Assembly (NCBI GenBank): GCA_043718735.1
Contig: JAYSVC010000030.1
Span: 1 to 41,309, forward strand
Origin: a bacterium
GTDB lineage: Bacteria; Patescibacteriota; Minisyncoccia; Phycocordibacterales; UBA5272
DNA length: 41,309 bases
Direction: 5' to 3'
Shown here: positions 4,542 through 18,787 of the stretch, one piece after another
Numbering within the stretch: the stretch's first letter is position 1
Layout of the letters: every line of letters begins with the position of its first letter
Notes under the pieces: generated by a model
What the model saw: the letters and a program-made list of their open reading frames with translations, nothing else
Database searches by the model: none
What the model was told of the DNA's origin: nothing
Translations under genes and position numbers: made by a program

Positions 4542-5531
4542 TTAAGGTTGAAATACTGGTTTTGTATATACTATCGATTTTACATTAGCAAATTGTTTTG
4601 CTGTTGCTTCTAATTGAGCTTGTAAGACTTTTGCTCTACATGATCCCCCGCTCGTCCTATTGTTAGGATCAGCTAGGTCGATAGTCAACACTCCAGCATT
4701 TGAGATAAAAGCACTCTTTAGCTCAACACCACTCAGTGGATACTCCGAGCTTATGCCACTATTTTTCTCAGCAAGAGTGAGTTCTCCTTTTAAAAATAGA
4801 CGAAGAGTGTCCTGAAGAGGTGTCTGTGTGATAGGGACAGATCTTTGCACTGGCACGAGTCCTTTTGCAGAACATAGAATATTCCCATTTATATCTTTGT
4901 CGAGTACACTATTATAATAATAAAGATTTACAGAGCGCTGATTTTTGTTAACATCAAAACGAACAGGAACCCTAAAAGATCTCTCATTTTCAGGGAGGCC
5001 ACTCGGATTATCATTTTTAAAGATAAGAGTTCCTGTTTCTGTGGTTGGATTTGCAAAAGTTATTGTAATCTTAAATGGGACAAAAGCAGATGTCATCCAG
5101 TCTGATTGGGCTGTAGCTGGACCTTGGAACAATATCTTGCCGTTTGCGTCCACTAGCTGCACCGGAAAAGATGCTTCAAAATACCAACCTTTTGCCTCCC
5201 CCTCTATTGTAATCGGACTTTGGATGACTTGACCAGATGTTAATCCATAAATCTTAATCTCGTCATTGCCGAGAGGAGTGCTTACTCCATTTCCTGTGTC
5301 TGGATTGGTTGGTGTAGCCTGCTCTGAACTATTGATAAATGTTTTCCCATCTGGAGTTTTGCACTGCGGAGGATAACTTTCAAGTATCGGATACCCTGCT
5401 CGCCTACACTCTTCAAATGTAGATATCAAGTTATAACTATTATTTTTGTAAAAATAAAAGAATGCTCCTGTTAATAAGATTATTAAAAGTATCAGAACTG
5501 TGACAATTTTCTTTTGTGTAGTGTTTTTCAT
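4542..5531 (-). CDS. Membrane-anchored protein with Gmad2-like Ig domain and GerMN-like domain
   Basis: N-terminal TM segment. IKIYGLTSGQVIQSPITIEGEAKGWYFEASFPVQLVD resembles Gmad2. The C-terminal half resembles GerMN. Both calls are from memory. Confidence 0.6.
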   Translation of the reverse strand: MKNTTQKKIVTVLILLIILLTGAFFYFYKNNSYNLISTFEECRRAGYPILESYPPQCKTPDGKTFINSSEQATPTNPDTGNGVSTPLGNDEIKIYGLTSGQVIQSPITIEGEAKGWYFEASFPVQLVDANGKILFQGPATAQSDWMTSAFVPFKITITFANPTTETGTLIFKNDNPSGLPENERSFRVPVRFDVNKNQRSVNLYYYNSVLDKDINGNILCSAKGLVPVQRSVPITQTPLQDTLRLFLKGELTLAEKNSGISSEYPLSGVELKSAFISNAGVLTIDLADPNNRTSGGSCRAKVLQAQLEATAKQFANVKSIVYTKPVFQP

Positions 5532-5997: not shown

Positions 5998-7443
5998 TTA
6001 ACTTTTATTCAGATTAAGGTCTTCACTGTTAGAGAGTTTATACTTAGTGTTTTTAGTAGAATTTTCTATCTGTATTTTAACAAGCAAACCTTGTGAAACC
6101 CATTTTGTAAACAATCTTGACATCTTATGAAGTTGTGCTATATTGGTCAACTCTCTTGCTTTGGAATTGTTTATGTAATGATTAGACAAAAGATACTCTT
6201 TAACTTTTTCCCACTCATCTTGCCTCTTCTCATTAAGCAAAACAACTTTTATAGAGTCTTCGTAAATTGGATAAGATAAGTAAATTGGATCATAAAGATT
6301 TTGCTCTCGCATTTCGTTTCTCATGGCCTGAACACCTTCATTTCTATCAAGATTAGGTTGTTCTGGAAATTCTCTCAGATGCTTTACTATTAAATCATTT
6401 CTATACCCATCTGCTCTAACGCGTCCGATATTTGATGTTGTTATGTTGTATGGGAATAATCCTGGATTAATTATTTCAATCCTGTCCTCAAATATACTTA
6501 TTTCTATATCTCTTTTAATAAAATAATCTCTATGGATAATTGAATTTGTTATAGCCTCTTTTACTGCACGTTCTGGTATTTGATATTTAGTTAGAAACCC
6601 AGAATGTATTTCTATCCCATTTCTCAGTAGAAGTAACACATAATCTTGAGTATCTTTTATTATTTTTATAAGTGGTCCTTCTAAGGTTTTTGGTATCCCT
6701 TTTAGATTCGGAACTTCACCAAAAGTTTCAATTGTGCCAGAATACTGAAAAACTCTCACAGCACACTTTGTATCTAATATATTGGTTGGATGGAGTGCAA
6801 ATAACAATACAGAAGCTCTGGTTGGCAATAATATCCCTTGCTCATTTTTTCTTGCTAAACCTGTGCTAAATAATGTGTCTCGTATTGAACTTATAGGCAA
6901 TTCTCTAAACTGCTTCCAAGATTCATAGTGCTCTGTGTTCAATAATTCAAAATCTACATCCACAAGCTCTATGTCTGCTTTTTCAAAACCTTTAGCATAG
7001 CTCATTTTTATAATCTCTTGAGGAGATAGCTTTTTATTACTTTTATTTTGTCTTATCCATACCTCATTATTTATAGAATGAAATACATTAGGACTTTTTT
7101 GAATAGTTAGGTGCACAATTGTTTTATTAACAATTTCATCTTTAATTTTTATAGGGATCCAAATATTTCCAATTGGAGGAACAATTTTCTGCACCTCTCT
7201 ACCAATCTCATCAAATAAATCCATATTTTCTTCTAAGCCAAATATTCTATCTCTTCCTTTTAATTTTGTTTTTTCTGGGTCATCAATTCCAAAAAAAATT
7301 ACACCCCCTTCCATGTTAGACATCGCAACTATGGTCTGAATAATCTTAGTCACAACCTTATCACCTTTCAATCTTTTGAATTCTATTTTTTGAGTTTCTT
7401 CCGGAATGGCAAGAATTTTGTCGACAATTTCTTTATCTAGCAT
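5998..7443 (-). CDS. AlbA_2 (Schlafen-like) DNA-binding domain + HATPase_c_4 ATP-binding protein (COG2865-type)
   Basis: N-terminal EETQKIEFKR is an AlbA_2 motif. AVKEAITNSIIHRDY is an HATPase_c_4 motif. The C-terminal part looks wHTH-like. Confidence 0.7.
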   Translation of the reverse strand: MLDKEIVDKILAIPEETQKIEFKRLKGDKVVTKIIQTIVAMSNMEGGVIFFGIDDPEKTKLKGRDRIFGLEENMDLFDEIGREVQKIVPPIGNIWIPIKIKDEIVNKTIVHLTIQKSPNVFHSINNEVWIRQNKSNKKLSPQEIIKMSYAKGFEKADIELVDVDFELLNTEHYESWKQFRELPISSIRDTLFSTGLARKNEQGILLPTRASVLLFALHPTNILDTKCAVRVFQYSGTIETFGEVPNLKGIPKTLEGPLIKIIKDTQDYVLLLLRNGIEIHSGFLTKYQIPERAVKEAITNSIIHRDYFIKRDIEISIFEDRIEIINPGLFPYNITTSNIGRVRADGYRNDLIVKHLREFPEQPNLDRNEGVQAMRNEMREQNLYDPIYLSYPIYEDSIKVVLLNEKRQDEWEKVKEYLLSNHYINNSKARELTNIAQLHKMSRLFTKWVSQGLLVKIQIENSTKNTKYKLSNSEDLNLNKS

Positions 7444-7490: not shown

Positions 7491-7541
7491 ATTAAAAAAC
7501 ACTTTTTTTACAAAACAGGAAAACTTAATGTGCACAATAAT

Positions 7542-7568
7542 AAAAACCAGACGCGAGGTCTGGTTTTT
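7542..7568 (-). terminator. Rho-independent terminator (possibly the native terminator of the tRNA-Lys/tRNA-Asn unit, now separated by the island)
   Basis: Stem CCAGAC (7547-7552) / GTCTGG (7558-7563), with an A-run before it and a T-run after it. Confidence 0.7.
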
Positions 7569-7688
7569 ATTATTTTGCTCCCTATACTGGACGAGTTCAG
7601 AACTGTTAACTGGGGTAAAATTGAGAGTGATTTAAGGTATAGTGGTCTCTTTGGATTATTTGAAATTAAAGAACTTCAAAACTTTTGA

Positions 7689-8363
7689 TTATAAGATATT
7701 TAATGGTTTATACGTCTTCTTCAACTTTTTAACAGTTTTCTCAAAATATCTTTTTGCTTTTAAGCTTTTGAATGGCCATATTTTTTGCACTCTATTAAAA
7801 AATGCTCTTGTAAAGTGTCTGATTATTAATTCATTATCTATTCCGTATATTTCATAAATATAACCAAAAGACAGCGATAATATCTCGTCACTCATCAAAG
7901 TTATTTGCTTGAATGCTTTAGCTTCACTAATTTTTAACGGGTTGGACAGTCTTCCTTTTATATTAACTTTTTTACCTTTTTTAGGTAAACCAACATAAAC
8001 ACTATTCTGTTTAACGCTCTCTAATTTACCTTTCGAGACACCTTCAAGAAATCTTTTATGAGTATCTCCGTGTTCAGACCAATTATTAAAATAAGAATTA
8101 TGGAAAAAATAACTCTGTTTACCTAAATGACTATAAAACATATTTAAAAAATCTTGTTCAAGTTCGCCTAAACCATCATCCCAGTGGAGACCTTTTTCAA
8201 CCATATGGACTTTACCTATTTCTTCTAGTGCAAGAATTGATAAAAAGTATGCACTAGCAAAAGATTTTTTCTTATGTAAATGTATAGAGTCTTTATGTAA
8301 TCTAACAGCGTTATGAAAAGAGAGTTCTCCTATCTTTTCTAGTTTTTTACTACTTATTCCCAT
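7689..8363 (-). CDS. AbiV-like (HEPN) abortive-infection protein
   Basis: SFASAYFLSILALEEIGKV resembles the AbiV/HEPN N-terminal signature. The size, 224 aa, is typical. The call is from memory. Confidence 0.55.
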   Translation of the reverse strand: MGISSKKLEKIGELSFHNAVRLHKDSIHLHKKKSFASAYFLSILALEEIGKVHMVEKGLHWDDGLGELEQDFLNMFYSHLGKQSYFFHNSYFNNWSEHGDTHKRFLEGVSKGKLESVKQNSVYVGLPKKGKKVNIKGRLSNPLKISEAKAFKQITLMSDEILSLSFGYIYEIYGIDNELIIRHFTRAFFNRVQKIWPFKSLKAKRYFEKTVKKLKKTYKPLNIL

Positions 8364-8422
8364 CTCATAATTATATCATGACACCTTACTTTTCTTTACA
8401 TTTTATTGTATAATTACAGTTA

Positions 8423-9739
8423 ATGAAATATAAGTTGGAAGACGATTACGAACCATTTAGTGGCATACAAGAATTATTTGAAAATGACAAATACCTTCTC
8501 TTTCTTTTAACCTTCTTAGAGGCGTACAAAGACGATAGAGACCATATAAGATTGTCTGAACTTACTAAAAATATTGACTGGAGTCATGAAGACTTTCACG
8601 ACAACTTACCAGATGAAGACTTTTACACTTATCAAGAAAGGGCTTTTAGTCAGGCAGAGATGTTTTATGAGTATTCACGATTAGGATTTTTTACAGCTGT
8701 GGGTATAGAAGATTACGAAGAGACAATAAATAAAATATTACTACATTTTGCTAGAGAAATAAAAGAAGAAGAGCTTAACCGAGATACAGCTAGTTATTTT
8801 CAAAATATAATAACAAATCTTATTTATTTTGCAGATAAAAGGAAAAATATGTTAGAAAAAGATAATGAAAGAAAAATTAAGAAGGGTCTATCCAAAGAAA
8901 ATCTTGATGAGTTTTTTAAGGAACTAAGAAGAAAAGATATTTTTATTTCAAAAGAAAATAGATATTTCAATAAATTACACGAACTTATGGGGGTTATTCC
9001 TGAGGACGTAACAATACTTATAGATAAAAATAAAAAAGGTTTTGATAAACTGGAAAAAGAGTTAAAAAAATATTTAGATGAGTTTATAAACAATAACCAC
9101 CACCTTAATAATAATCATAATGAGGCAAGAGAGCACGTATTCACACAAATTAACTTATTCATCAGATATATAAATACTCTTAATCCCGTAAATGGTTATG
9201 TTAATATACCCTTCTCAGTTCTTAAAGAAAAAAAGTTTGAAGCCATAAAACTAATAAAATACTTAGAGTTACAAGGACAAGTTAAGGTAAAGTGGAGTGA
9301 CGAGAAGAGTCTGAAATTAAAGTTTGCTAAAAATATGATTGATGAAAATCTATTTTTTGAAAATGAAAATAAAATAGAAACTCCTAATAATAATCCTAAA
9401 ATAAATAAAATTAAGTTTAACTTAAGTTTTTTACCTACCACTGGAATACTTGAAATAGCAAACAGAGATGGAGCTAAGTATAAAATAATAATACAAGGAC
9501 AAGTCCAAAAAGAAGTAATTAGGACTATATTTAAAACCCCAGAAAATACTTATTCTGAATGGAGTTTATATGAAATAAGCGAAGAGCTTGGTGGAGTGGA
9601 TATGAATGAAAGAGCCATTAACAATGCTCTATACCAGTTAAATAGAAAAGTTCAATTAGCGATACCAGAAATAAAAAATCTATTTGAGTTGAACAAACAT
9701 TCAGCAACAATAAATACAGAATATGTCATCAAAAATTAA
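8423..9739 (+). CDS. Hypothetical K/E/N-rich protein (438 aa) with possible C-terminal winged-helix
   Basis: Clean ORF divergent from the AbiV gene. The C-terminal ~90 aa (EWSLYEISEELGG...INNALYQLNRKV) looks like an OmpR/CadC-type wHTH. No NTPase motif seen. Confidence 0.6.
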   Translation: MKYKLEDDYEPFSGIQELFENDKYLLFLLTFLEAYKDDRDHIRLSELTKNIDWSHEDFHDNLPDEDFYTYQERAFSQAEMFYEYSRLGFFTAVGIEDYEETINKILLHFAREIKEEELNRDTASYFQNIITNLIYFADKRKNMLEKDNERKIKKGLSKENLDEFFKELRRKDIFISKENRYFNKLHELMGVIPEDVTILIDKNKKGFDKLEKELKKYLDEFINNNHHLNNNHNEAREHVFTQINLFIRYINTLNPVNGYVNIPFSVLKEKKFEAIKLIKYLELQGQVKVKWSDEKSLKLKFAKNMIDENLFFENENKIETPNNNPKINKIKFNLSFLPTTGILEIANRDGAKYKIIIQGQVQKEVIRTIFKTPENTYSEWSLYEISEELGGVDMNERAINNALYQLNRKVQLAIPEIKNLFELNKHSATINTEYVIKN

Positions 9740-9763
9740 GTAAACTTAAGTAAGCAATAAAGT

Positions 9764-9792
9764 ATCCTGAAGTTAGTCCTTCGGGATTTTTT
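9764..9792 (+). terminator. Rho-independent terminator
   Basis: Stem ATCCTGAAG (9764-9772) / CTTCGGGAT (9779-9787) with one G-U pair, followed by a T-run. Confidence 0.7.
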
Positions 9793-9948
9793 ATGCAGAT
9801 TACTAACGACAACAATTCTATAAAAGTAAATATAGAAAAGAAAGAAGAAATACCAGATTTTGAAAATGTGGTCGGTCTTTTTAACCTACTTTTAAAAATT
9901 GATAAGCGTGTTAATCCGCATATTTATAAAAATAATAATACAAAATAA
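9793..9948 (+). CDS. Possible small ORF (51 aa), not in the ORF track
   Basis: ATG at 9793 and TAA at 9946-9948, ending 2 nt before the next ATG. No SD or family match. Confidence 0.3.
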   Translation: MQITNDNNSIKVNIEKKEEIPDFENVVGLFNLLLKIDKRVNPHIYKNNNTK

Positions 9949-9950
9949 AT

Positions 9951-10235
9951 ATGGAAAAGTTCTACACATTTATACCAGATTACTCAATAGGCGAAGGAGA
10001 AAAACTTCTCTTCCCTATAACATCAGAAGAAGTCTTAAAGAGATTAGAAGATAAGCTTATAAACAAATACTTATATAGAGTGCATATGGCTCTTTGTTGT
10101 GTTGATAATATAAAAAAGCACTTAATAAAAGCTATGGATGAGGCTTCACTTATGGCTTTAGATGATAATGAACCTATATGGAAAGAGATAGATAAAAAAT
10201 ATCAAGAAGAAATACTAAACTCCATGAAAATATGA
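9951..10235 (+). CDS. Hypothetical protein (94 aa)
   Basis: ATGA stop/start overlap with the downstream Rep gene. Confidence 0.5.
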   Translation: MEKFYTFIPDYSIGEGEKLLFPITSEEVLKRLEDKLINKYLYRVHMALCCVDNIKKHLIKAMDEASLMALDDNEPIWKEIDKKYQEEILNSMKI

Positions 10236-11359
10236 TAGATACCATCTGCCTACTTATACCAAAGGATAAATTAATTTTCTTAAATGAAAGTAATAGTCCT
10301 AGTTGGAACTTACAATCTCATACAGAACAGTATGATAGGTTTGTAAAAAACCCTACAAAACTTCAAAAAGAAAGTGGTTACTACTACCCTCGTCTTACTG
10401 GATACAAAAGAAAATATAATGATGAACGCAATGTAAAAATTGAGTTCTCAGTTCCAAAGATTATCTACAATAACAACTTAGACGAAGTTGAAGAAAATCA
10501 ATTTGACGAAATAGTGAACACTTTAAGAAATAGACTAAGAGAAATGGGTATTGTAGCAACTGAAAGTACTATCAAAAATGCAGGAGTAAGCTCTATGCAC
10601 TATTCTAAAAATATAATACTTCAAGATGGGTACACTGTTAATCAAGTAATATCAGAACTAAATAAGATAGACCTGCGAAAGACTTTTGATTTTGCAAAAG
10701 CAAGATTTATCAATGATGGTCAAAGTCTATATCTCCATACTACCTCACACGAGTTTACAATCTATGACAAGCTAGCTGATATGAAAAAGGATAAAAAGCG
10801 TGCAATAGATAAAGACCAAACAATGATACAAAGAACTCTATTTAATCAAATAGATAAGAAAAAAGTCTTGAGCGAAGTTTTAAGATTTGAAGTAAGACTT
10901 AGTAAGAAAGTAAAAATGGATAGCCTGCTTGAAAAACTTGGGTATTCTAAACATATGAACTTTGAACAATTATTTAAAAAAGAAATAAGTCAAAAAATAG
11001 TTACTCATTATTGGGAAACTTTAATCACAGAAAGAAACCTTGGACTATTCACTGTACAAAGTTCAGATAAAGACTTGCTTAGAAGTATATATAGAGCTAT
11101 ACCGAATATAAAACCAAATAGAGCCATATATCTAACGGGATTACTATTACTCGCAAAAGATGGTAACGGGATGCGAGAACTTCGGTCCATATTAGAAAAG
11201 AAATCAAATGATAGAACTTGGTTTCGTATCGCAAAAGATGTAAGAGAATTATCAAGCTCACTACCCTCTAACTTGGTCAGAGGCTGGGTAAAACAAATAG
11301 ATAACGCATTATTAACTTATAAACCATTAAGAATAAAAGATTATGAAGAAATTACCTAA
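10232..11359 (+). CDS. Rolling-circle replication initiator, phage/plasmid gene II/X (Phage_CRI)-like
   Basis: N-terminal MIDTICLLIPKD resembles f1 gpII MIDMLVLRLPF. LRFEVRLSKK resembles gpII VRFEARIKTR. Comparison is from memory. Confidence 0.5.
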   Translation: MIDTICLLIPKDKLIFLNESNSPSWNLQSHTEQYDRFVKNPTKLQKESGYYYPRLTGYKRKYNDERNVKIEFSVPKIIYNNNLDEVEENQFDEIVNTLRNRLREMGIVATESTIKNAGVSSMHYSKNIILQDGYTVNQVISELNKIDLRKTFDFAKARFINDGQSLYLHTTSHEFTIYDKLADMKKDKKRAIDKDQTMIQRTLFNQIDKKKVLSEVLRFEVRLSKKVKMDSLLEKLGYSKHMNFEQLFKKEISQKIVTHYWETLITERNLGLFTVQSSDKDLLRSIYRAIPNIKPNRAIYLTGLLLLAKDGNGMRELRSILEKKSNDRTWFRIAKDVRELSSSLPSNLVRGWVKQIDNALLTYKPLRIKDYEEIT

Positions 11360-11381
11360 GCAAAAAAGAAACGAAATAGAA

Positions 11382-11419
11382 TTACTAATTGAAAAACAAA
11401 TGAAAGTTTTTACTAATTG
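11382..11419 (+). repeat. Direct repeats TTACTAATTG x2, with further (A/G)TAATACA x3 and TGTAAAG x2 repeats up to 11503. Candidate iterons/origin.
   Basis: TTACTAATTG at 11382-11391 and 11410-11419. TAATACA at 11431, 11445 and 11497. TGTAAAG at 11478 and 11488. The region lies immediately downstream of rep. Confidence 0.45.
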
Positions 11420-11471
11420 TATTATAAAAATAATACAAGAAAAGTAATACACATTATAAACAAAAATACTG

Positions 11472-11500
11472 TTGCAATGTAAAGAATTGTAAAGTATAAT
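11472..11500 (+). promoter_or_regulatory. Promoter TTGCAA-N17-TATAAT for the xis-M-R-recombinase operon
   Basis: TTGCAA at 11472-11477 and TATAAT at 11495-11500. A small hairpin CCAAG/CTTGG follows in the leader. Confidence 0.6.
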
Positions 11501-11534
11501 ACAACCAAGTAAGACTTGGATAAATAATCTTATT

Positions 11535-11723
11535 ATGAACGAAAAAAATACAAAAGAGTTTTACAAAGCTGAAGAGCTTGCCGAAAAATTAGAGGTCAAC
11601 ATTATGACTATCTACCGCTACATAAAAGCTGGTCGTCTCAAGGCTTATAAAATCGGTAAAGAGTTCAGAATAGACAAAGACGAGTTTAACGCTTTTCTTA
11701 AAAGTGTAAGAACATATGAGTAA
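11535..11723 (+). CDS. Excisionase-family (MerR-like HTH_17) DNA-binding protein
   Basis: EELAEKLEVNIMTIYRYIKAGRLKAYKIGKEFRI matches the excisionase-type HTH pattern. Confidence 0.75.
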   Translation: MNEKNTKEFYKAEELAEKLEVNIMTIYRYIKAGRLKAYKIGKEFRIDKDEFNAFLKSVRTYE

Positions 11724-12651
11724 TAAAAAAAACATAACTTATTCCTCACCAACTTTATTCGCTGGAACGAGTAAGAAAATTAACCATACTACTACTTTCA
11801 TTGATTTATTTGCTGGAATAGGAGGCTTTCATATAGCATTTCGTAACGCTGGTGCTGAATGTGTTTTTGCGTCTGAGTGGGACGAACACGCAAGAAAAAC
11901 ATACATTGAAAACTTTTATAAAAATGACCCAGCTCTTTTTGACGACGGTAACTTTGTTGGAGACATAACAAAAGTTGATAAAGCCTCAATACCTGATTTT
12001 GATATTCTTACAGGAGGTTTTCCTTGTCAGCCGTTTAGCCAAGCAGGACACAAAAAAGGTTTTGAGGATACAAGAGGAACTTTATTTTTTGATATTGCAG
12101 AAATACTTAGGATAAAAAGACCAAAAGCATTTTTCATTGAGAATGTTAGAGGGTTACTTACTCACGACTTAGGAAGAACTTTTGAAACAATTAAAAATAC
12201 AATCACTGAGGATTTGGGCTACTCATTTCATTTTGGAATTGTAAAAGCATCTGACCACGGATTACCACAACATAGACCAAGACTTTTTATGGTTGGTTTC
12301 AGAGATAAAGATATTGTGTTTACACCCCCTATAAAAAGAGAATTGATGTATACAATGTCAGATGTCTTTGAGGGTCAGGCAGAGAAAAAAGTTGGATTTA
12401 CTTTGCGTGTTGGAGGTAAGGGTTCAAGCATTACTGACCGCAGAAATTGGGACAGTTATATGGTTGACGGAAAAGTTAGACGGATTACTCCAAAGGAGGG
12501 CAAGCGAATGCAAGGATTTCCTGACGATTTTGTTTTCCCTGTTACTGATAATCAAGCAATGAAACAACTTGGTAACAGTGTTGCGATTAGGGCTATCCAA
12601 GACTATGCACAACAAATAATTGATACTTTAAATAAACACTATGAAAAATAA
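11716..12651 (+). CDS. DNA (cytosine-5)-methyltransferase
   Basis: Motif I FAGIGGF, motif IV GGFPCQPFS, motif VI ENV, motif VIII QHRPRLF, motif X GNSV. Confidence 0.92.
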   Translation: MSNKKNITYSSPTLFAGTSKKINHTTTFIDLFAGIGGFHIAFRNAGAECVFASEWDEHARKTYIENFYKNDPALFDDGNFVGDITKVDKASIPDFDILTGGFPCQPFSQAGHKKGFEDTRGTLFFDIAEILRIKRPKAFFIENVRGLLTHDLGRTFETIKNTITEDLGYSFHFGIVKASDHGLPQHRPRLFMVGFRDKDIVFTPPIKRELMYTMSDVFEGQAEKKVGFTLRVGGKGSSITDRRNWDSYMVDGKVRRITPKEGKRMQGFPDDFVFPVTDNQAMKQLGNSVAIRAIQDYAQQIIDTLNKHYEK

Positions 12652-13717
12652 TAATCCAACAACAGGAAATACGGGAGAATGGAGTGAACTATACGCACTT
12701 GGATTTTTACTTGCTAATGGTGGTGTGTACGGTGCTGATAGTAAACAAAATAGAAAAGATGATTTATTCTATAAGGTTTTAAGAGTGATTTTCCAAGGTA
12801 AAGAAAACAAAGAACGAGTGTCTTATGACATCAATGATGAAAATGTTGTTATTTACTTTGATAATAAAAGGGTCTCATCAATAAAAATTAGTAAGATAAA
12901 AACGGTCCTGAATAAGTTTTTGCTTTCACTTACCTCAAAGAACGAAGGGCGAGCATACAAATTAGAGACTGGCGAGGAAATGATGAAGTTACTCAAAAAA
13001 GAAGTTATAAAAGCATCAAGTAAAGACAAGAAAGATTTGGACTTGGTGTTACTTGATATAAAAACAAAGATACAAACACCTGAGATTGGTTTTAGTATAA
13101 AGTCTCAAATAGGTAGTCCCTCAACACTCATCAACGCGTCAAAGGCTACTAACTTTATTTACGAGGTCTTAGATAAGAATGGTAAGACACCAAAGACTTT
13201 ACCTGACCTACACCCTAAGAATGTAAAAGATAATATATCTTTATTACTTGATAGTGGCTATCAAGTCGTTTTCTCTAAAATGGAAAGTGCTACTTTTCAT
13301 AAAAATCTTACTCTTATAGACAGTAAACTTCCTGAGTATGTTGCTAAGTTCTTACTCTCATTCTTTTCAAGAGGAGCAAACTCAATGAGCGACTTAGTGA
13401 ATAAAAGTTTTACTGGTGAGGCAGGAAAGCAACCGATATATAAGATAAAAGAGTTTTTGAGTATTATGGCTCTTGGTATGATGCCTAATACTGATTGGAA
13501 TGGAATACTAACAAGTCTTGGAGGAATGCTTTTAGTAAAGAAAGACGGTGATGTGCTTTGTTATTATCTCTATAACATAGAGGATTTTCAAACTTACCTT
13601 TTGGACAACACAAAACTTGATACACCCAGCACAACACGATACGGTATTGGAAAGATAATACAAGAGGACGGAAAGATGTATATAAAACTAAACCTACAAG
13701 TCAGGTTCATAAAATAA
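12641..13717 (+). CDS. Type II restriction endonuclease, HpaII-family-like
   Basis: N-terminal GEWSELYALGFLLANGGVYGAD resembles the remembered HpaII-family start. It overlaps the C5-MTase gene by 11 nt. Confidence 0.6.
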   Translation: MKNNNPTTGNTGEWSELYALGFLLANGGVYGADSKQNRKDDLFYKVLRVIFQGKENKERVSYDINDENVVIYFDNKRVSSIKISKIKTVLNKFLLSLTSKNEGRAYKLETGEEMMKLLKKEVIKASSKDKKDLDLVLLDIKTKIQTPEIGFSIKSQIGSPSTLINASKATNFIYEVLDKNGKTPKTLPDLHPKNVKDNISLLLDSGYQVVFSKMESATFHKNLTLIDSKLPEYVAKFLLSFFSRGANSMSDLVNKSFTGEAGKQPIYKIKEFLSIMALGMMPNTDWNGILTSLGGMLLVKKDGDVLCYYLYNIEDFQTYLLDNTKLDTPSTTRYGIGKIIQEDGKMYIKLNLQVRFIK

Positions 13718-13718
13718 T

Positions 13719-15242
13719 ATGAAATCTCTAATCATAGCTAGAGTATCAACAGAAGAGCAAAGAGAAGCGGGTAATTCATTGCCAGCTCAACAAACAAGAC
13801 TTCTTAACTATATAGAACGCTCATATAGTAAAACCGATAACTCTAAGCTTGAAATAGATAAAGAGTTTATATTTGATGAAAGTGCTTATAAAGAACACAG
13901 AAAAGAGTTTGGTAAAATACTTGAATACATAGATTTACAAAAAGAAAACATAGCAGTTTGTTGTGATAAGGTCGACAGACTTTCAAGAGATTTCTTAACA
14001 GGATTGCCAGGATTAGAAAGACTTAGAAGAGTTGGTAAGATTGAATTACATTTCCCTTCTGATAATTTAGTTTTACACGTAAACTCTCCTGCTACAGACT
14101 TATTTCATTACAACATAGCAGTCGCTTTGGCTCAATATTATTCTAATGCTATAAGTGATAATACAAAAAGAGCCTTAGAGCAAAAGAGAAGAAATGGTGA
14201 ATGGACTGGTCCTGTAAGACTAGGCTACTTGAATGTCCCACTTGATGAAGAAAATAGGACCAGGAAAACTATAATCATAGACCCTGAAAGAGGACACCTA
14301 GTCGCAGAGATGTTTGATAAATATGCTACTGGTAATTACTCACTTGAGACCATAAGACAAGAAATGGCTAGTAAAGGCCTTAAGACCCGCAAAGGAAATA
14401 GCGTGTCTAAAAGTGGTGTTGAAAATATTTTAAAAGATAGTTTTTACTGCGGTATAGCGATGTCTAAAAAATATGGGCCATATGCTCACATATATCCAAA
14501 ACTTATAGACAGACCGGCTTTTGATAAGTGTAAGGAAATAAGAGAAAGTAGAAAGAAAAAACCAAATAAAGAAAAATCAAAAGACTTCATTTTGAAAGGT
14601 ATTTTAACTTGTTCAAATTGTGGTTGTAACATAACAGCTGAACAAGTAAAGAAGCCAAATGGTAATATTTATAACTACTATTCTTGCACAAATGGTAAAG
14701 GAATATGCAAGAGAGTGTATGTATCAGAAAAGACATTGCTAGAGCCTGTATATGGCATTTTAGGGCGTTTAGAAGGCATATCACAAGAAGCTCAAGAAAG
14801 ACTTATAAAGGAATTAAGAAACTTGAACGAAACACAAGTTGAATATCATAAAAAGCAAGTAGAAAGAATACAGTCTGAATACAAAAAATACCAAACAAGA
14901 AAAAATAGTATTCTTGATATGTATGCGGACCAGAGTATTACTAAGTTAGATTATGACAAAAAGATGCAAGAGTATAATGACAAAATGCAACTTCTTGAAA
15001 TTGAGCTTTCTGAATATGGAAACGCAGACACAGAATATAAAATCGTTATATCTACAGTATTTTCTCTGGCAAGAAGAGCTAAAGAAATATTTGATAGTTC
15101 TGAAGTGAATGAAAAAAGACAGATTTTGAGTTACCTACTTCAGAACTCCACCTTAAATGAAAAAACGCCTTGCTATACAATGCGTTCTCCGTATAATCTG
15201 ATACTCGGACTACATAGTAACCCTAACTGGCTCCGTGAGTAG
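13719..15242 (+). CDS. Large serine recombinase (integrase)
   Basis: The resolvase catalytic N-terminus IIARVSTEEQ is followed by a recombinase domain. A zinc ribbon (CSNCGC...YYSCTNGKGIC) and a coiled-coil tail complete the protein. Confidence 0.9.
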   Translation: MKSLIIARVSTEEQREAGNSLPAQQTRLLNYIERSYSKTDNSKLEIDKEFIFDESAYKEHRKEFGKILEYIDLQKENIAVCCDKVDRLSRDFLTGLPGLERLRRVGKIELHFPSDNLVLHVNSPATDLFHYNIAVALAQYYSNAISDNTKRALEQKRRNGEWTGPVRLGYLNVPLDEENRTRKTIIIDPERGHLVAEMFDKYATGNYSLETIRQEMASKGLKTRKGNSVSKSGVENILKDSFYCGIAMSKKYGPYAHIYPKLIDRPAFDKCKEIRESRKKKPNKEKSKDFILKGILTCSNCGCNITAEQVKKPNGNIYNYYSCTNGKGICKRVYVSEKTLLEPVYGILGRLEGISQEAQERLIKELRNLNETQVEYHKKQVERIQSEYKKYQTRKNSILDMYADQSITKLDYDKKMQEYNDKMQLLEIELSEYGNADTEYKIVISTVFSLARRAKEIFDSSEVNEKRQILSYLLQNSTLNEKTPCYTMRSPYNLILGLHSNPNWLRE

Positions 15243-15302
15243 GGATCGAACCTACGACCAATTCCTTAACAGGGAACTGCTCTACCGCTGAGCTATCACG
15301 GA
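15228..15302 (-). tRNA. tRNA-Asn (GTT), CCA encoded
   Basis: Manual cloverleaf: acceptor TCCGTGA/TCACGGA, anticodon loop CTGTTAA, T-loop TTCGATC, 75 nt. Confidence 0.9.
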
Positions 15303-15309
15303 ATAATGG

Positions 15310-15386
15310 TCTCGCTTAGCGCCTACTGAACGTAAGATATTTACACTCACTTTTTCGTATACGAAGAAAGTCAGCGCTAAGCGAGA
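15310..15386 (-). ncRNA. Candidate structured RNA / tRNA-Asn leader (Y-shaped, ~77 nt)
   Basis: 13-bp perfect closing stem (15310-15322 / 15374-15386) encloses two ~8-bp hairpins. It starts at the predicted TSS of the promoter at 15392-15420. Confidence 0.45.
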
Positions 15387-15745: not shown

Positions 15746-18700
15746 ATGAAAAATATAATCGACTTTACAAACTTTACTAAAAAGATTTTCGCTAGCACAC
15801 TACTAACTAGTATGCTCGCCACATTATTAATATCAGCAACATTTAGCTCTGCCTTAGCTGCTGGGGGTAATACTGTTACCCTAACGCCAGTAGCAGACAC
15901 GACTTATGGTTCTGCACCAATATCAATAACGGCAACACTTGATCCAGCTGTTGGGAACGTAACATTCACTTGGTCAGGAAGCTGTAATCTAACTGGAGCT
16001 GGAGAGACACGCAGTATAAGTATAACTGGAGCAGGAACATGTACTGTTACTGCTACTAAAAATAGTAATGCTTTTGCTACTGTTACTTTTAATATAGCAA
16101 AGAAGGACATTACTATGAGTACTGGAGATTTTGCCAGTCCTAGCAAAATCTATGACGGGACAACTGTTGCGAGCACAATACTGAATCCAACAGCTATCAC
16201 TTTTTCTGGAGTAATCAATGGCGATGATTCAGACGCGGCAAAGTTAAGTGTGAACACTTCTACCGGAGTTGCTACTCTATCTTCTAGAAATGTGACCACA
16301 ACAGCAGTGAACAATGTTACTTTTACAGGTTACACTCTGCAAGGAACAAAATCAGGTAATTACAATCTTACAAATCAACCATTACCAGAAACACAAATAG
16401 TAAACAAAAGAACTATTACTGTAACTCCTGCGGCAACTACAAAGGTTTACGACACTAACACATCATCTGTCACCTCTCCTGTGATTAGCCCTGCTGTTGC
16501 CACTGGCGATACTGGTGCTTTTACTCAAAGTTATGTAACTACAGACGTTGCTACAGCCAAAGAAATGATAGCAACAGGAAATGTATCAGATTCTAATGAT
16601 GGAAATAATTATACTGTGACTTTTGCAACTGCTAGCGTTGGAGTTATAACAAAAAAAGGACTAACTGTAACAGGATTAACAGCTTCTAACAAAGAGTATG
16701 ATTCAAATACTAGCACTACTGGTGCGGGAGTTCCTGCTCTTGTTGGCGTGATGGCTACTGATACTGTAACTCTTGGAGGTTCTGCAGTTATGAGCTTCTT
16801 AGATTCTGCAGTGGCTAATGGAAAGACAGTAAATGTAACTGGCTTAACTATTAGTGGTACTAGTTCTGATAACTACTCACTAACACAGCCAACATTAACT
16901 GCAAATATTACAGCCAAAAATATAACAATATCTGGTCTTAGTGTTGCGAATAAAGTATATGATGGACTAACAACAGCCATAATGAGTGGTGTAGCTACTC
17001 TTGTTGGTGTTATAAATACTGACTTGCTTAATGTCAGATTAGGGGGGAATCCTATCCTAGCTAACTTTGACACAAAGAATGCCAGCACTTCAAAACTAGT
17101 TAACATAACAGGATACACAGCGAGTGGAACAGCTGCAACTAATTACAATATTGTCACTCCTACAACTACTGCAAATATTACAAAGAAAACTTTAACTGTA
17201 ACTGTATCAGCTGTTAATAAAGTATATGATGGAAATACAAATGCTGTTGTGACTTTTTCTGATAACAGATTAATGGGAGATTTAATAACTATAACTGGAA
17301 CAGCTAATTTTTCTAGCAAAACTGTTGCTAATACAAAATTAGTAACTGTAACTGGATTAACTGTGACAGGCACTGATGCTGTAAATTATGTTTTAGCTAC
17401 TACCACATTAACAACAACTGCAAATATCACAAAGAAAGATATAACTACTAATGTCACTGCTTCTTCTAAAACCTATGACGCAAATACACTTGCTTCGTCT
17501 ACTGTATACTCATCAGGCATTGCTATAGGTGATTTTGTAAATTACACTTTTACAAGCTCTAACTTCTCAAACAAGAATGTAGGTATTGCAAAATTAGTAA
17601 CAGTGAATGGCATAGCTCTTGCAACTGCAACTGATACTCTTAATTATAATTTATTAAATGCTGTTGCAACCACAAATGCTAACATCACAGCTCGTGACCT
17701 GATTGTCTCTTCTGTGGGTGTTAATAAAGCATATGATGGCACTACTACTACAACCGTTAATTCTCTAACTTCTAATTCTTTACTTGGGGATGTAATTGGA
17801 GCCATATCTTCTACTACATCTAACTTTATAGACAAGAATGTAGGAGTAAATAAATTAGTAACTACAAATATACTAATAGGTGCTGGGGTTGATAATACCA
17901 ATTACAACTTACCACTTATCTCTACAACAACTGCAAATATCACAAAGAGAACATTAAATATGTTAAGTGCATCTGGCACTGATAAGGAGTACGATGGTAG
18001 CAGATACGGATTTGCTTCAATCACAGACAACAGAATAACTGGAGATGTGTTAGTCTATGCTTCTACAACCTCACTCTTTGACACAAAGAATGCTGGTGAT
18101 ACAAAAAGCATAACAGTAATCGGTATAACAATAAGTGACACTGATGCCATGAACTACACATTAGCGTCAACTAGTATTACGACTCCTCTGAATGTAAAAA
18201 TCACTAAAAAATCAGCAACTATATCGGCTGAAAACAAAACAAAAGCTTTTGGTGACGCTGACCCGATATTAACAGCAACTACTAGCATGATTATTGGAGA
18301 TACTCTAACAGGAACACTTGTAAGAACAGTAGGTGAAAATGTAGGTACATATACTATTAATCAAGGCACACTGAGTGCTGGCAATAATTACATAACTACT
18401 TTTAATGCTGGAACATTCACAATCACAGAGGCTGTGATTCTTACACCAGTTATTGTAGAAAACTTTGCTGGATTCCTTATCGCTTCTACTAACCTCAGTA
18501 GAAATGCTACGGTGAGAAATAGCGATGGATCATTACAGGTACTACAAGTATTAGGAGCAAGCAAGTTTAGATTCAACAAAAATCTTAAGCTTGGAATGAA
18601 GAATAATAATGACGTAAAAGAATTACAAAAAGCATTAAATGCTCTAGGATTATATGCGTCTACCAGCACAAATGGAAACTTTGATAATGATCTATTTAAA

Positions 18701-18787
18701 GCCGTTAAAGCTTATCAAAAGATTAACAAAGTGACTCCAGTATCTGGATATTTTGGACCAATCACACGTGGTGTTATAAACAAATAA
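15746..18787 (+). CDS. Large secreted surface protein: 8 YDG-type repeats + MBG domain + C-terminal peptidoglycan-binding domain
   Basis: Signal peptide present. Recurring K(V/I/E/T/A)YD(G/T/S/A)xT ... NY ... TANITKK units. MBG-like AFGDADP...GENVGTYTINQG...NY. PG_binding_1-like DVKELQKALNALGLY...AVKAYQK. Confidence 0.85.
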   Translation: MKNIIDFTNFTKKIFASTLLTSMLATLLISATFSSALAAGGNTVTLTPVADTTYGSAPISITATLDPAVGNVTFTWSGSCNLTGAGETRSISITGAGTCTVTATKNSNAFATVTFNIAKKDITMSTGDFASPSKIYDGTTVASTILNPTAITFSGVINGDDSDAAKLSVNTSTGVATLSSRNVTTTAVNNVTFTGYTLQGTKSGNYNLTNQPLPETQIVNKRTITVTPAATTKVYDTNTSSVTSPVISPAVATGDTGAFTQSYVTTDVATAKEMIATGNVSDSNDGNNYTVTFATASVGVITKKGLTVTGLTASNKEYDSNTSTTGAGVPALVGVMATDTVTLGGSAVMSFLDSAVANGKTVNVTGLTISGTSSDNYSLTQPTLTANITAKNITISGLSVANKVYDGLTTAIMSGVATLVGVINTDLLNVRLGGNPILANFDTKNASTSKLVNITGYTASGTAATNYNIVTPTTTANITKKTLTVTVSAVNKVYDGNTNAVVTFSDNRLMGDLITITGTANFSSKTVANTKLVTVTGLTVTGTDAVNYVLATTTLTTTANITKKDITTNVTASSKTYDANTLASSTVYSSGIAIGDFVNYTFTSSNFSNKNVGIAKLVTVNGIALATATDTLNYNLLNAVATTNANITARDLIVSSVGVNKAYDGTTTTTVNSLTSNSLLGDVIGAISSTTSNFIDKNVGVNKLVTTNILIGAGVDNTNYNLPLISTTTANITKRTLNMLSASGTDKEYDGSRYGFASITDNRITGDVLVYASTTSLFDTKNAGDTKSITVIGITISDTDAMNYTLASTSITTPLNVKITKKSATISAENKTKAFGDADPILTATTSMIIGDTLTGTLVRTVGENVGTYTINQGTLSAGNNYITTFNAGTFTITEAVILTPVIVENFAGFLIASTNLSRNATVRNSDGSLQVLQVLGASKFRFNKNLKLGMKNNNDVKELQKALNALGLYASTSTNGNFDNDLFKAVKAYQKINKVTPVSGYFGPITRGVINK
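16090..18200 (+). repeat. In-frame tandem array of ~230-nt coding repeats (YDG domains)
   Basis: DNA-level recurrence of ACTGCAAATAT(T/C)ACAAAGA(A/G)A and AAAGTATATGATGG. These are protein repeats, not CRISPR. Confidence 0.8.

Follow-up and report, generated by a model that had tools for sequence, protein, structure and literature searches.

Serine integrases are the main tools for the insertion of large DNA, and they are described as avoiding tRNA genes. In the systems of phiC31, Bxb1, A118/LI, TP901-1, SPbeta and the SCCmec Ccr proteins, Resolvase and Recombinase domains are combined with a zinc ribbon bearing a coiled-coil insert; the attachment (att) sites of phiC31 and similar serine-integrase elements are short, with a 2-bp core, no long direct repeats and a dyad-symmetric proximal motif, and their distal motif lies 5 bp nearer the centre in attB than in attP (PMC3783163). 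The Islander paper of 2014 states that no integrase of the serine family was known to use tRNA genes as its target (PMC4383910). Here we analyse a stretch of 41,309 nt (the window; contig JAYSVC010000030.1) from a candidate-phyla-radiation bacterium, in which a ~7.65-kb mini-plasmid with anti-phage genes sits in the last bases of a tRNA-Asn gene. The element shares both the recombinase domains and the att-site architecture of the systems above. Unlike phiC31-type elements, it uses the 3' end of a tRNA gene as its target, only the tRNA half of its attB is conserved, and its attP lies within the integrase open reading frame (ORF), so that integration alters the C-terminus of the protein.

In hitting and restoring the 3' part of a tRNA, in the adjacent position of the integrase gene and in tandem accretion, the element resembles the Islander-type islands and prophages with tyrosine integrases. 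The enzyme families are, however, unrelated, and here only five tRNA nucleotides are replaced, with attL and attR sharing 4-11 nt instead of tens of nucleotides; due to this short identity, a repeat-based search cannot locate the far end. As in SSV1-type archaeal integrases, attP is located in the integrase coding sequence, and the gene is split and is intact on the circle only (PMC8371274); while the archaeal enzymes are tyrosine integrases from which a large part is removed, here a serine recombinase sheds only a 35-aa tail, with none of its recognised domains lost. C-terminal truncation, with different products in the free and integrated states, is also the basis of integration-dependent immunity in mycobacteriophages (PMC3694055), although there the integrase is of the tyrosine family and a repressor is truncated, losing a degradation tag, whereas here it is the integrase itself. 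Finally, a circle of 6.7-7.7 kb and a predicted initiator with a G2P-like fold recall rolling-circle plasmids and the G2P of filamentous phages, albeit with no sequence-level family membership and no virion genes. We found no literature report of this element family, of a tRNA-targeting serine integrase or of a serine integrase gene split by integration; the coverage of this search is incomplete, and earlier reports are possible.

Boundaries of the element

The element extends from the TC dinucleotide at 7579-7580 to the TC at 15232-15233, both within GCTCC, and is 7,653 bp long with one TC core counted. Positions 7581-15233 very probably represent a single intact copy of a small integrative plasmid-like element. 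The first-pass annotation of this DNA had proposed an integrated element at tRNA-Asn with a large serine recombinase, Rep, restriction-modification (R-M) and Abi genes, and the comparative data bear this out. The features of the locus are:

7532-7578, no strand: host hairpin with flanking T/A runs; 21-nt arms (7532-7552 and 7558-7578), 95% complementary
7577-7581, plus strand: GCTCC common to attR, containing the putative crossover TC at 7579-7580 (attL/attR comparison, dyad)
7581-7603, plus strand: P' arm of the att site, including TGGACGAGTTCAGAAC at 7588-7603 (motif found in 36 attL sites)
7581-7688, plus strand: detached 3' end of the integrase gene, 35 codons and a TGA stop, in frame with 13719-15233 in the circle only
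7689-8363, minus strand: AbiV-family abortive-infection gene, cargo (Pfam HEPN_AbiV 1.2e-20, TIGR04498 9e-19, PADLOC AbiV 4e-10)
8423-9739, plus strand: 438-aa protein without a family match, accessory gene of the element (homologues in 10 related loci)
9951-10235, plus strand: 94-aa protein without a family match, directly upstream of and overlapping Rep
10232-11359, plus strand: 375-aa core protein, probable rolling-circle initiator with a G2P-like fold (fold match)
11535-11723, plus strand: 62-aa core protein of the HTH_17/excisionase family (Pfam HTH_17 1e-12, TIGR01764 'excise' 6.5e-13)
11716-12651, plus strand: C5 cytosine DNA methyltransferase, R-M cargo (Pfam DNA_methylase 1e-82, PADLOC MTase_II 2e-100)
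12641-13717, plus strand: HpaII-family type II restriction endonuclease, R-M cargo (Pfam RE_HpaII 5.6e-88, PADLOC REase_II 6e-80)
13719-15242, plus strand: large serine recombinase, integrated truncated form of 507 aa (Resolvase, Recombinase and Zn_ribbon_recom domains)
15205-15252, plus strand: attR, with the P arm in the integrase ORF, TC at 15232-15233 and a B' arm formed by the tRNA acceptor and T arm
15228-15302, minus strand: tRNA-Asn(GTT), the integration target (ARAGORN; Rfam tRNA, 69.7 bits)
5998-7443, minus strand: AlbA_2/HATPase_c_4 gene just outside the element

Two short identities had been noted between the ends, GCTCC (7577-7581 and 15230-15234) and TAACTGG (7607-7613 and 15224-15230), together with a lack of long direct repeats. 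Both identities are present, and comparison of the tRNA end with the upstream 15 kb returned chance-level 8-10-mers and nothing longer. Identities of 5-7 nt are by themselves at chance level, and their significance comes from comparative data only. We scanned one genome per GTDB species, which yielded 407 stretches encoding a relative of the recombinase, and fetched 80 loci. Sites corresponding to attL were located by allowing up to three mismatches to the 16-mer TGGACGAGTTCAGAAC, provided that the shared core block preceded it, resulting in 36 sites in related Patescibacteria loci.

The left end of the element (7577-7650) consists of GCTCC, six nucleotides, TGGACGAGTTCAGAAC – which occurs once in the window – and then TGTTAACTGGGGTAAAATTGAGAGTGATTTAAGGTATAGTGG, and the conserved left-end motif of the family is GCTCC-N6-TGGACRAGTTCAGAAC plus ~60 nt. 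The 36 motifs are located on the plus strand, 4-10 kb upstream of the recombinase, and are always preceded by the first nucleotides of the local tRNA 3' end. As judged by information content across these sites, conservation is 0.25 bit per position to the left of GCTCC and ~1.8 bit from exactly GCTCC onward, and this jump places the start of the element at GCTCC. The DNA further to the left is not conserved, and often contains a hairpin and a T-run. In the window, this host DNA is the tRNA-Asn's own terminator: in the reconstructed empty site, the hairpin (arms 7532-7552 and 7558-7578) terminates tRNA-Asn, and in attL it makes up the non-conserved B arm. A terminator hairpin had earlier been placed at 7547-7563; the hairpin is real, although its extent has to be corrected to two 21-nt arms. 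A tRNA-like fold for the left-end motif was rejected on inspection.

The same conservation profile bears on the suggestion that the left boundary lies further out, so that the AlbA_2/HATPase_c_4 gene (5998-7443) would belong to a larger unit, either one element or a tandem array. Such arrays are common in relatives (L089, L055, L069, L017, L015, L031 and L038), the AlbA_2 protein resembles defence-associated PADLOC models and the gene is low in GC. However, conservation across the 36 sites begins at GCTCC, a search for a second P' end motif in the window found none even with three mismatches allowed, and there is no second recombinase to the left. The terminator hairpin, followed by a strong extended -10 promoter for AlbA_2, separates this gene from the element in the way of host DNA, and the gene has the same left neighbours in another sample. 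We consider a larger unit improbable and keep the boundary at GCTCC.

To map the crossover, we aligned 36 attL/attR pairs, with the T of TGGCTCC serving as position 0. The block shared by attL and attR differs by locus; it is 4-11 nt long (2 nt for one weak motif) and covers positions 2-5 (GCTC) in all of the pairs but L031-4554, where the weak three-mismatch motif shares positions 4-5 only. The consensus also contains a dyad, GTCC-N8-TC-N8-GGAC, with its centre between positions 4 and 5, on TC. The constant shared GCTC and the dyad centre thus make TC the best estimate of the central dinucleotide, and the exact crossover would correspond to tRNA positions G71 and A72. Elements at tRNA-Leu, Gln and Asp, as well as at His (aligned manually), have the same geometry, with the shared block over positions 4-5. 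Joining the ends accordingly, we reconstructed the two sites as follows:

attP, 15205-15233 joined to 7581-7603: junction ...CATAGTAACCCTAACTGGCTC followed by CCTATACTGGACGAGTTCAGAAC
attB, 7555-7580 joined to 15234-15252: junction GGTCTGGTTTTTATTATTTTGCTC followed by CGTGAGTAGGGATCGAACC

Had the crossover instead occurred at TAACTGG (7607-7613 and 15224-15230), the element would begin at ~7614 and TGGACGAGTTCAGAAC would be host DNA. The attraction of this placement is that the 7-nt identity also links both ends and is longer than GCTCC. Yet the motif to its left is conserved in elements at five tRNA species in different hosts, always following the first tRNA 3'-end nucleotides and an unconserved host terminator, and in the circular relatives described below GCTCC directly precedes this motif. 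The AAC-TGG itself is a conserved Asn-Trp codon pair that is found twice in the full-length protein. A crossover at TAACTGG is therefore exceedingly unlikely; of the two candidate cores between which the first-pass annotation did not decide, it is GCTCC that is upheld by the 36 attL/attR pairs and the circles.

The integrase gene across the attachment site

As had been reported from the sequence alone, the recombinase gene ends within tRNA-Asn: its TAG stop is located at 15240-15242, resulting in a 15-nt overlap whose codons for Trp-Leu-Arg-Glu read CCA, the discriminator and the acceptor strand in reverse complement. The codons up to 15233 belong to the element, and the tRNA gene contributes the final two (Arg-Glu) together with the stop (15234-15242); conversely, the last five nucleotides of tRNA-Asn (A72, G73 and CCA) now come from the element. 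Joining 13719-15233 to 7581 onward extends the reading frame without interruption to 540 aa, ending in ...NPNWLPILDEFRTVNWGKIESDLRYSGLFGLFEIKELQNF. The integrated copy is 507 aa long; it lacks a conserved 35-aa tail and has two tRNA-encoded residues at its end instead. As attP is located inside the integrase gene, integration parts the last 35 codons from the remainder of the ORF. The crossing of the att site by the recombinase ORF and its truncation, the large tRNA-targeting family and the circular relatives all go beyond the earlier annotation.

The tail is conserved as protein. Past the core, the recombinase frame is open for 25-41 codons (median 35) in all 36 attL sites, as compared to a median of 9 for the other two frames, and the tail consensus is LPLVDKFRTxNWxxIKSDLQFSGILGLFPxLxLQN. 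Within the P' arm the information content is 1.2-1.6 bit at every codon position, and in the tail beyond the DNA motif it follows a codon periodicity (0.83, 1.15 and 0.54 bit at codon positions 1, 2 and 3, respectively). Exactly this tail, unsplit, is carried by the homologues P0102 (539 aa), P0050 and P0051; in other loci the tRNA is read in a different frame, appending as many as a dozen or so arbitrary residues. When the tail peptide was used as a query, the only matches were small orphan ORFs annotated at attL sites. On homologous tails elsewhere, gene callers annotate predicted orphan ORFs of 36-88 aa (P0246-P0260), and in the integrated state of the window a TTG (7575-7577) is positioned in frame directly before the detached tail codons.

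The unsplit genes are found on circular relatives. The contigs that encode P0102 (7,412 bp) and P0051 (7,459 bp) have ends that overlap exactly, by 43 and 83 bp, respectively; the loci L083 and L084 are circles with unsplit recombinases of 539 and 527 aa. The attP of P0102 and P0051, ...GTCCTAACTGGCTCCCTCTCGTGGACAAGTTCAGAAC..., is the same as that rebuilt from the window. The closest relative of the window element was located via its Rep (90% aa identity) on two Joint Genome Institute (JGI) contigs from different samples: L090 (6,795 bp, 121-bp terminal overlap) and L091 (6,712 bp, 38-bp overlap), which are 100% identical and circularly permuted, yielding a 6,674-bp circle. On L090 the right end of the window element aligns through position 5091 and its left end (7585-7686) from position 5096, with 79-85% nucleotide identity. 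A circular junction with both ends joined, which had been put forward as a check on the element, is thus seen in close relatives such as L090/L091 and not for the window's own copy.

It is tempting to regard the exchange of the tail as a built-in regulatory switch, in which the 540-aa form is unlike the 507-aa form in its activity, stability or directionality; integration might, for instance, be favoured by the long form and excision by the short form, perhaps together with the HTH_17 protein. This would refine the integrative-plasmid reading rather than replace it. The tail is conserved as protein well past the ~25-bp P' half-site, as evident from the open frame in 36 of 36 sites and the codon periodicity, and it is kept in integrated copies, in which it cannot belong to the integrase. 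There are also precedents, in the mycobacteriophage repressor gene that contains attP and loses a C-terminal degradation tag upon integration, leading to integration-dependent immunity (PMC3694055), and in the archaeal integrase genes containing attP (PMC8371274). At the same time, the structure of the tail is predicted at low confidence with no docking site, conservation of DKFRT is partly explained by the overlapping DNA-binding motif, and selection in the circular phase alone would also keep the tail. We therefore put the switch forward as a possibility, and a rather doubtful one.

tRNA ends as targets of the recombinase family

The 507-aa ORF matches Pfam Resolvase (4.4e-17, residues 5-162), Recombinase (1.3e-13) and Zn_ribbon_recom (9.8e-6). 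Among 33 recombinase homologues R8, V9, the catalytic S10 and T11 are invariant, as are the zinc-ribbon cysteines 298, 301, 303, 323 and 330, and the AlphaFold2 (AF2) model of the homologue P0102 contains paired long helices (355-402 and 408-451), a predicted coiled-coil pair. The best NCBIfam matches, CcrA/B/C and XisF, are far under the cut-offs. By its domains, catalytic residues, coiled coil and att-site architecture, the enzyme is a large serine recombinase; that it catalyses attP x attB recombination is suggested by the integrated and circular forms of the relatives. Homologues number at least 1,199 at E <= 1e-20. They are mostly ~500 aa long and 55-60% identical over the full length, and nearly all of those with a source name come from Parcubacteria/Patescibacteria metagenome-assembled genomes.

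Targeting of tRNA genes is family-wide. The recombinase 3' end is on the contig in 75 of the fetched loci, and in 64 of these the gene ends on the 3' end of a convergent tRNA: 42 are tRNA-Asn as called by ARAGORN, 14 have a tRNA T-arm with no ARAGORN call and eight are tRNA-His, Leu(CAA), Gln or Asp. Calls are missing because group I introns interrupt tRNA-Asn: six of the eight no-call loci scanned with Rfam have such an intron in the anticodon loop (RF00028, 55-90 bits). The tRNA-Asn of the window has no intron. The intron-bearing tRNA-Asn genes are:

L004, 4755-5013
L006, 7139-7428
L014, 11549-11790
L028, 6464-6734
L037, 11543-11823
L058, 11526-11742

A recombinase only 29% identical to that of the window (L036, 18131-19675) also ends on a tRNA-Asn 3' end (GCTCCCCCGGTAG followed by GGATCGAACC), and tRNA targeting may therefore extend beyond the clade of the window's enzyme. 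At L009 (1545-1792) the end of the recombinase gene falls on 18 nt of a tRNA 3' end (TGGCTCCGGAGGTAGGGA); this fragment gives way to unrelated DNA, with an intact tRNA-Asn ~175 nt further on, and the junction may be rearranged or decayed.

How might one enzyme recognise several tRNA species? In the model of serine integrases, the zinc-ribbon domain binds positions 16-24 of the attP half-site, and the corresponding motif is located 5 bp nearer the centre in attB (PMC3783163). Counted from the TC centre, the P' arm contains GTTCAGAAC at positions 16-24 and the tRNA arm contains GGATCGAAC at 11-19, with an identical distal GAAC at 21-24 in P' and at 16-19 in the T-loop of B', i.e. with a shift of 5 bp. 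The shift is seen in the right-hand half-sites; the P and B arms have no clear distal motif. As read from these alignments, the shift fits the attP/attB model, and the zinc-ribbon domain would read the T-loop GAAC in attB. In the elements at tRNA-Leu, Gln, Asp and His, the T-loop GAAC is also found at positions 20-23 of the alignment on TGGCTCC. On the chromosomal side, the enzyme thus appears to read mainly the tRNA half of its target. Movement of the family between tRNA species would then be explained by the distance of the T-loop from the acceptor end, which is fixed in every tRNA.

Since the other chromosomal half-site is not conserved, new elements can probably insert between a resident element and the tRNA. 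In L089 (1-17250; JGI 3300078828) the integrase P0005 (533 aa) of one element continues in frame into the tail that belongs to a second; this second element contains Pycsar-like genes and its own recombinase. In three further loci (L055, 987-2543; L069, 455-2077; L017, 27-1460) a distant recombinase with 27-38% identity ends on the P' arm of the tRNA-proximal element, and two P' motifs each are found in L015, L031, L038 and L082. In such arrays at one tRNA, the core is where the integrase of an element meets the P' tail of its neighbour, and the neighbours encode Pycsar-like cyclases together with PycTM, ResIII alongside a methyltransferase, and a distant serine recombinase. The arrays are consistent with one chromosomal half-site being free, and suggest that defence islands build up stepwise beside the tRNA. 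The window contains one element only.

Replication, cargo and the nature of the element

The core of the family is formed by the 375-aa G2P-like protein (61 related loci, 49-68% identity), the HTH_17 protein (65 loci) and the integrase, and the other genes vary. The 375-aa protein has 980 homologues; its Y178-D179-K180 and several histidines are invariant. Searches of Pfam, NCBIfam, PHROG and PDB sequences with the protein and 36 homologues, and of PADLOC with the protein, returned no match. Its AF2 model (predicted local distance difference test score, pLDDT, of 81) has Foldseek matches to inoviruses in BFVD, including 'Replication-associated protein G2P [Inoviridae]' (E 7e-9 to 6e-7, probability 1.0, TM 0.41-0.50), and the automatic UniRef name of one homologue is 'Replication initiation protein'. 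Its best reading, which we hold with moderate confidence, is as a rolling-circle initiator; the earlier designation as a rolling-circle Rep therefore stands at the level of the fold, but not as membership of a sequence family. The Rep-HTH intergenic region (11360-11534) contains a 23-nt imperfect inverted repeat (11404-11426 and 11495-11517) and a promoter-like TTGCAA-17-TATAAT (11472-11500), and may represent the origin or a regulatory region of the element. The 62-aa HTH_17 protein is a candidate directionality factor or regulator.

The remaining genes are cargo or lack an assignment. The ORFs of the methyltransferase and the HpaII-family endonuclease are adjacent and overlap by 11 nt. The AbiV gene is not found in related loci, the cargo of which includes other R-M systems and Pycsar-like genes. 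No family match was found for the 438-aa protein in Pfam, PHROG, NCBIfam and PADLOC or for the 94-aa protein in Pfam and PHROG; a 94-aa gene is located at the corresponding place in L089 and in the circular relative L091.

A G2P-like initiator could also be part of an integrated filamentous, inovirus-like prophage. The Foldseek matches are to inovirus G2P, ~7 kb is a typical inovirus size, and there are reports of inoviruses from the candidate phyla radiation (PMC6813254). However, family searches of all ORFs in the window detected neither a Zot/pI-like ATPase nor a recognisable coat gene, and the circular relatives hold only Rep, HTH and R-M genes, the integrase and two or three small or unassigned genes. 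Furthermore, the family is essentially absent from IMG/VR and the GenBank phage collection: in IMG/VR the attP pattern had no matches and the recombinase had two weak ones. A prophage is thus very unlikely. Given the lack of virion genes and the near-absence from viral, phage and plasmid collections, we call the element plasmid-like.

We hold with high confidence the integrative plasmid-like reading as a whole, with the att site inside the integrase ORF and tRNA-Asn as the target. It is directly supported by the boundaries, the in-frame join, the conservation of the tail, the circular relatives, the family-wide targeting of tRNAs and the set of core genes. Several observations weigh against it. 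The window's own P arm is a poorer match to the dyad (ACCC as compared to GTCC), and the P arm does not clearly mirror the distal motif of P'. The AF2 model of a full-length integrase homologue leaves the tail at low confidence (pLDDT 33-54) and does not place it. The Rep label rests on fold similarity of moderate TM, 0.45-0.5, and an automatic UniRef name, there is no significant PDB fold match for the 375-aa protein, and tblastn searches of phage and plasmid collections with it were empty. Terminal overlaps in metagenomic contigs can come from tandem copies, although this origin is unlikely for the closest relative because its two identical assemblies are permuted differently. The compositional shift, proposed earlier as a check, is weak: GC is 31.4% in the element and 33.4% outside, and the 4-mer distance is 0.297 inside as compared to 0.226 +/- 0.049 outside (~1.4 standard deviations). 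Finally, neither a same-species empty site nor a circular junction of the exact element or host was recovered. Exact-protein look-ups of flanking genes gave no record for the 1013-aa, AlbA_2 and 370-aa proteins, and for the 329-aa flanking protein and the recombinase itself gave only short Logan contigs that stop before the junctions. A metagenome scan for unoccupied tRNA-Asn genes yielded two sites (L085 and L086), both from other organisms; they have an identical 3' half, end in ...CACGGAGC and continue into a T-run or terminator, with no encoded CCA. The reconstructed empty site likewise ends ...CACGGAGC-AAAATAA with CCA not encoded, so that the ancestral arrangement proposed earlier, tRNA-Asn followed by the hairpin, matches unoccupied genes of other organisms.

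Taken together, the integrative plasmid-like reading suggests the following life cycle. The free form would be a circle, probably replicating by the rolling-circle mechanism via the 375-aa G2P-like initiator and producing the 540-aa integrase with its conserved tail. The serine recombinase would recombine attP, located within the 3' end of its own gene, with the 3' end of the host tRNA-Asn, crossing over at TC (tRNA positions 71-72). The zinc-ribbon domain would bind the attB half-site where the T-loop GAAC is located, and the other chromosomal half-site would be the unconserved tRNA terminator. The element's copy would replace the last five nucleotides of the tRNA (A72, the discriminator G and CCA), and since the element supplies its own copy of these, the tRNA stays intact. 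The integrated copy would then encode the 507-aa form, and the HTH_17 protein would be involved in excision.

Outside the element, a tRNA-Lys gene is located 160 nt beyond tRNA-Asn. The interval between the two (15310-15386) contains an 18-nt inverted repeat, 89% complementary with a 41-nt spacer, which may be a processing or terminator structure of the tRNA transcription unit. Further on, 15746-18787 (plus strand) encodes a 1013-aa secreted-looking protein with many repeats (…YDGTT…NYNL…TANITKK…), and this gene has the most deviant 4-mer composition of the window, exceeding that of the mobile element. On the other side, the AlbA_2/HATPase_c_4 protein resembles the pAgo-associated and SIR2-associated models of PADLOC (E 1.6e-20) and the PHROG 'DNA helicase' family (2e-74); it may be a defence-related host gene adjoining an integration hotspot.

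To our knowledge, very few plasmids or integrative elements have been described in candidate-phyla-radiation bacteria, for which there are almost no genetic tools. An element of 6.7-7.7 kb that both replicates and integrates, with defined att sites, is a natural vector candidate. The family appears to read the tRNA T-arm, which widens the known target range of serine integrases, and the attB on offer would be present in every bacterium of the group. Stacking of R-M, Abi and Pycsar-like cargo at one tRNA would explain defence islands in these reduced genomes. More speculatively, and with much less confidence than we place in the element itself, a clade found in more than 400 Patescibacteria species may use a universal half-site of tRNA T-loop and acceptor, hop between tRNAs and stack defence islands, with the 35-aa tail present on the circle only serving as a directionality or stability switch. 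An integrase C-terminus that depends on the free or integrated state would be a simple and directly testable genetic switch; if the tail does act in this way, the elements would change directionality or stability without the classical reliance on a directionality factor alone.

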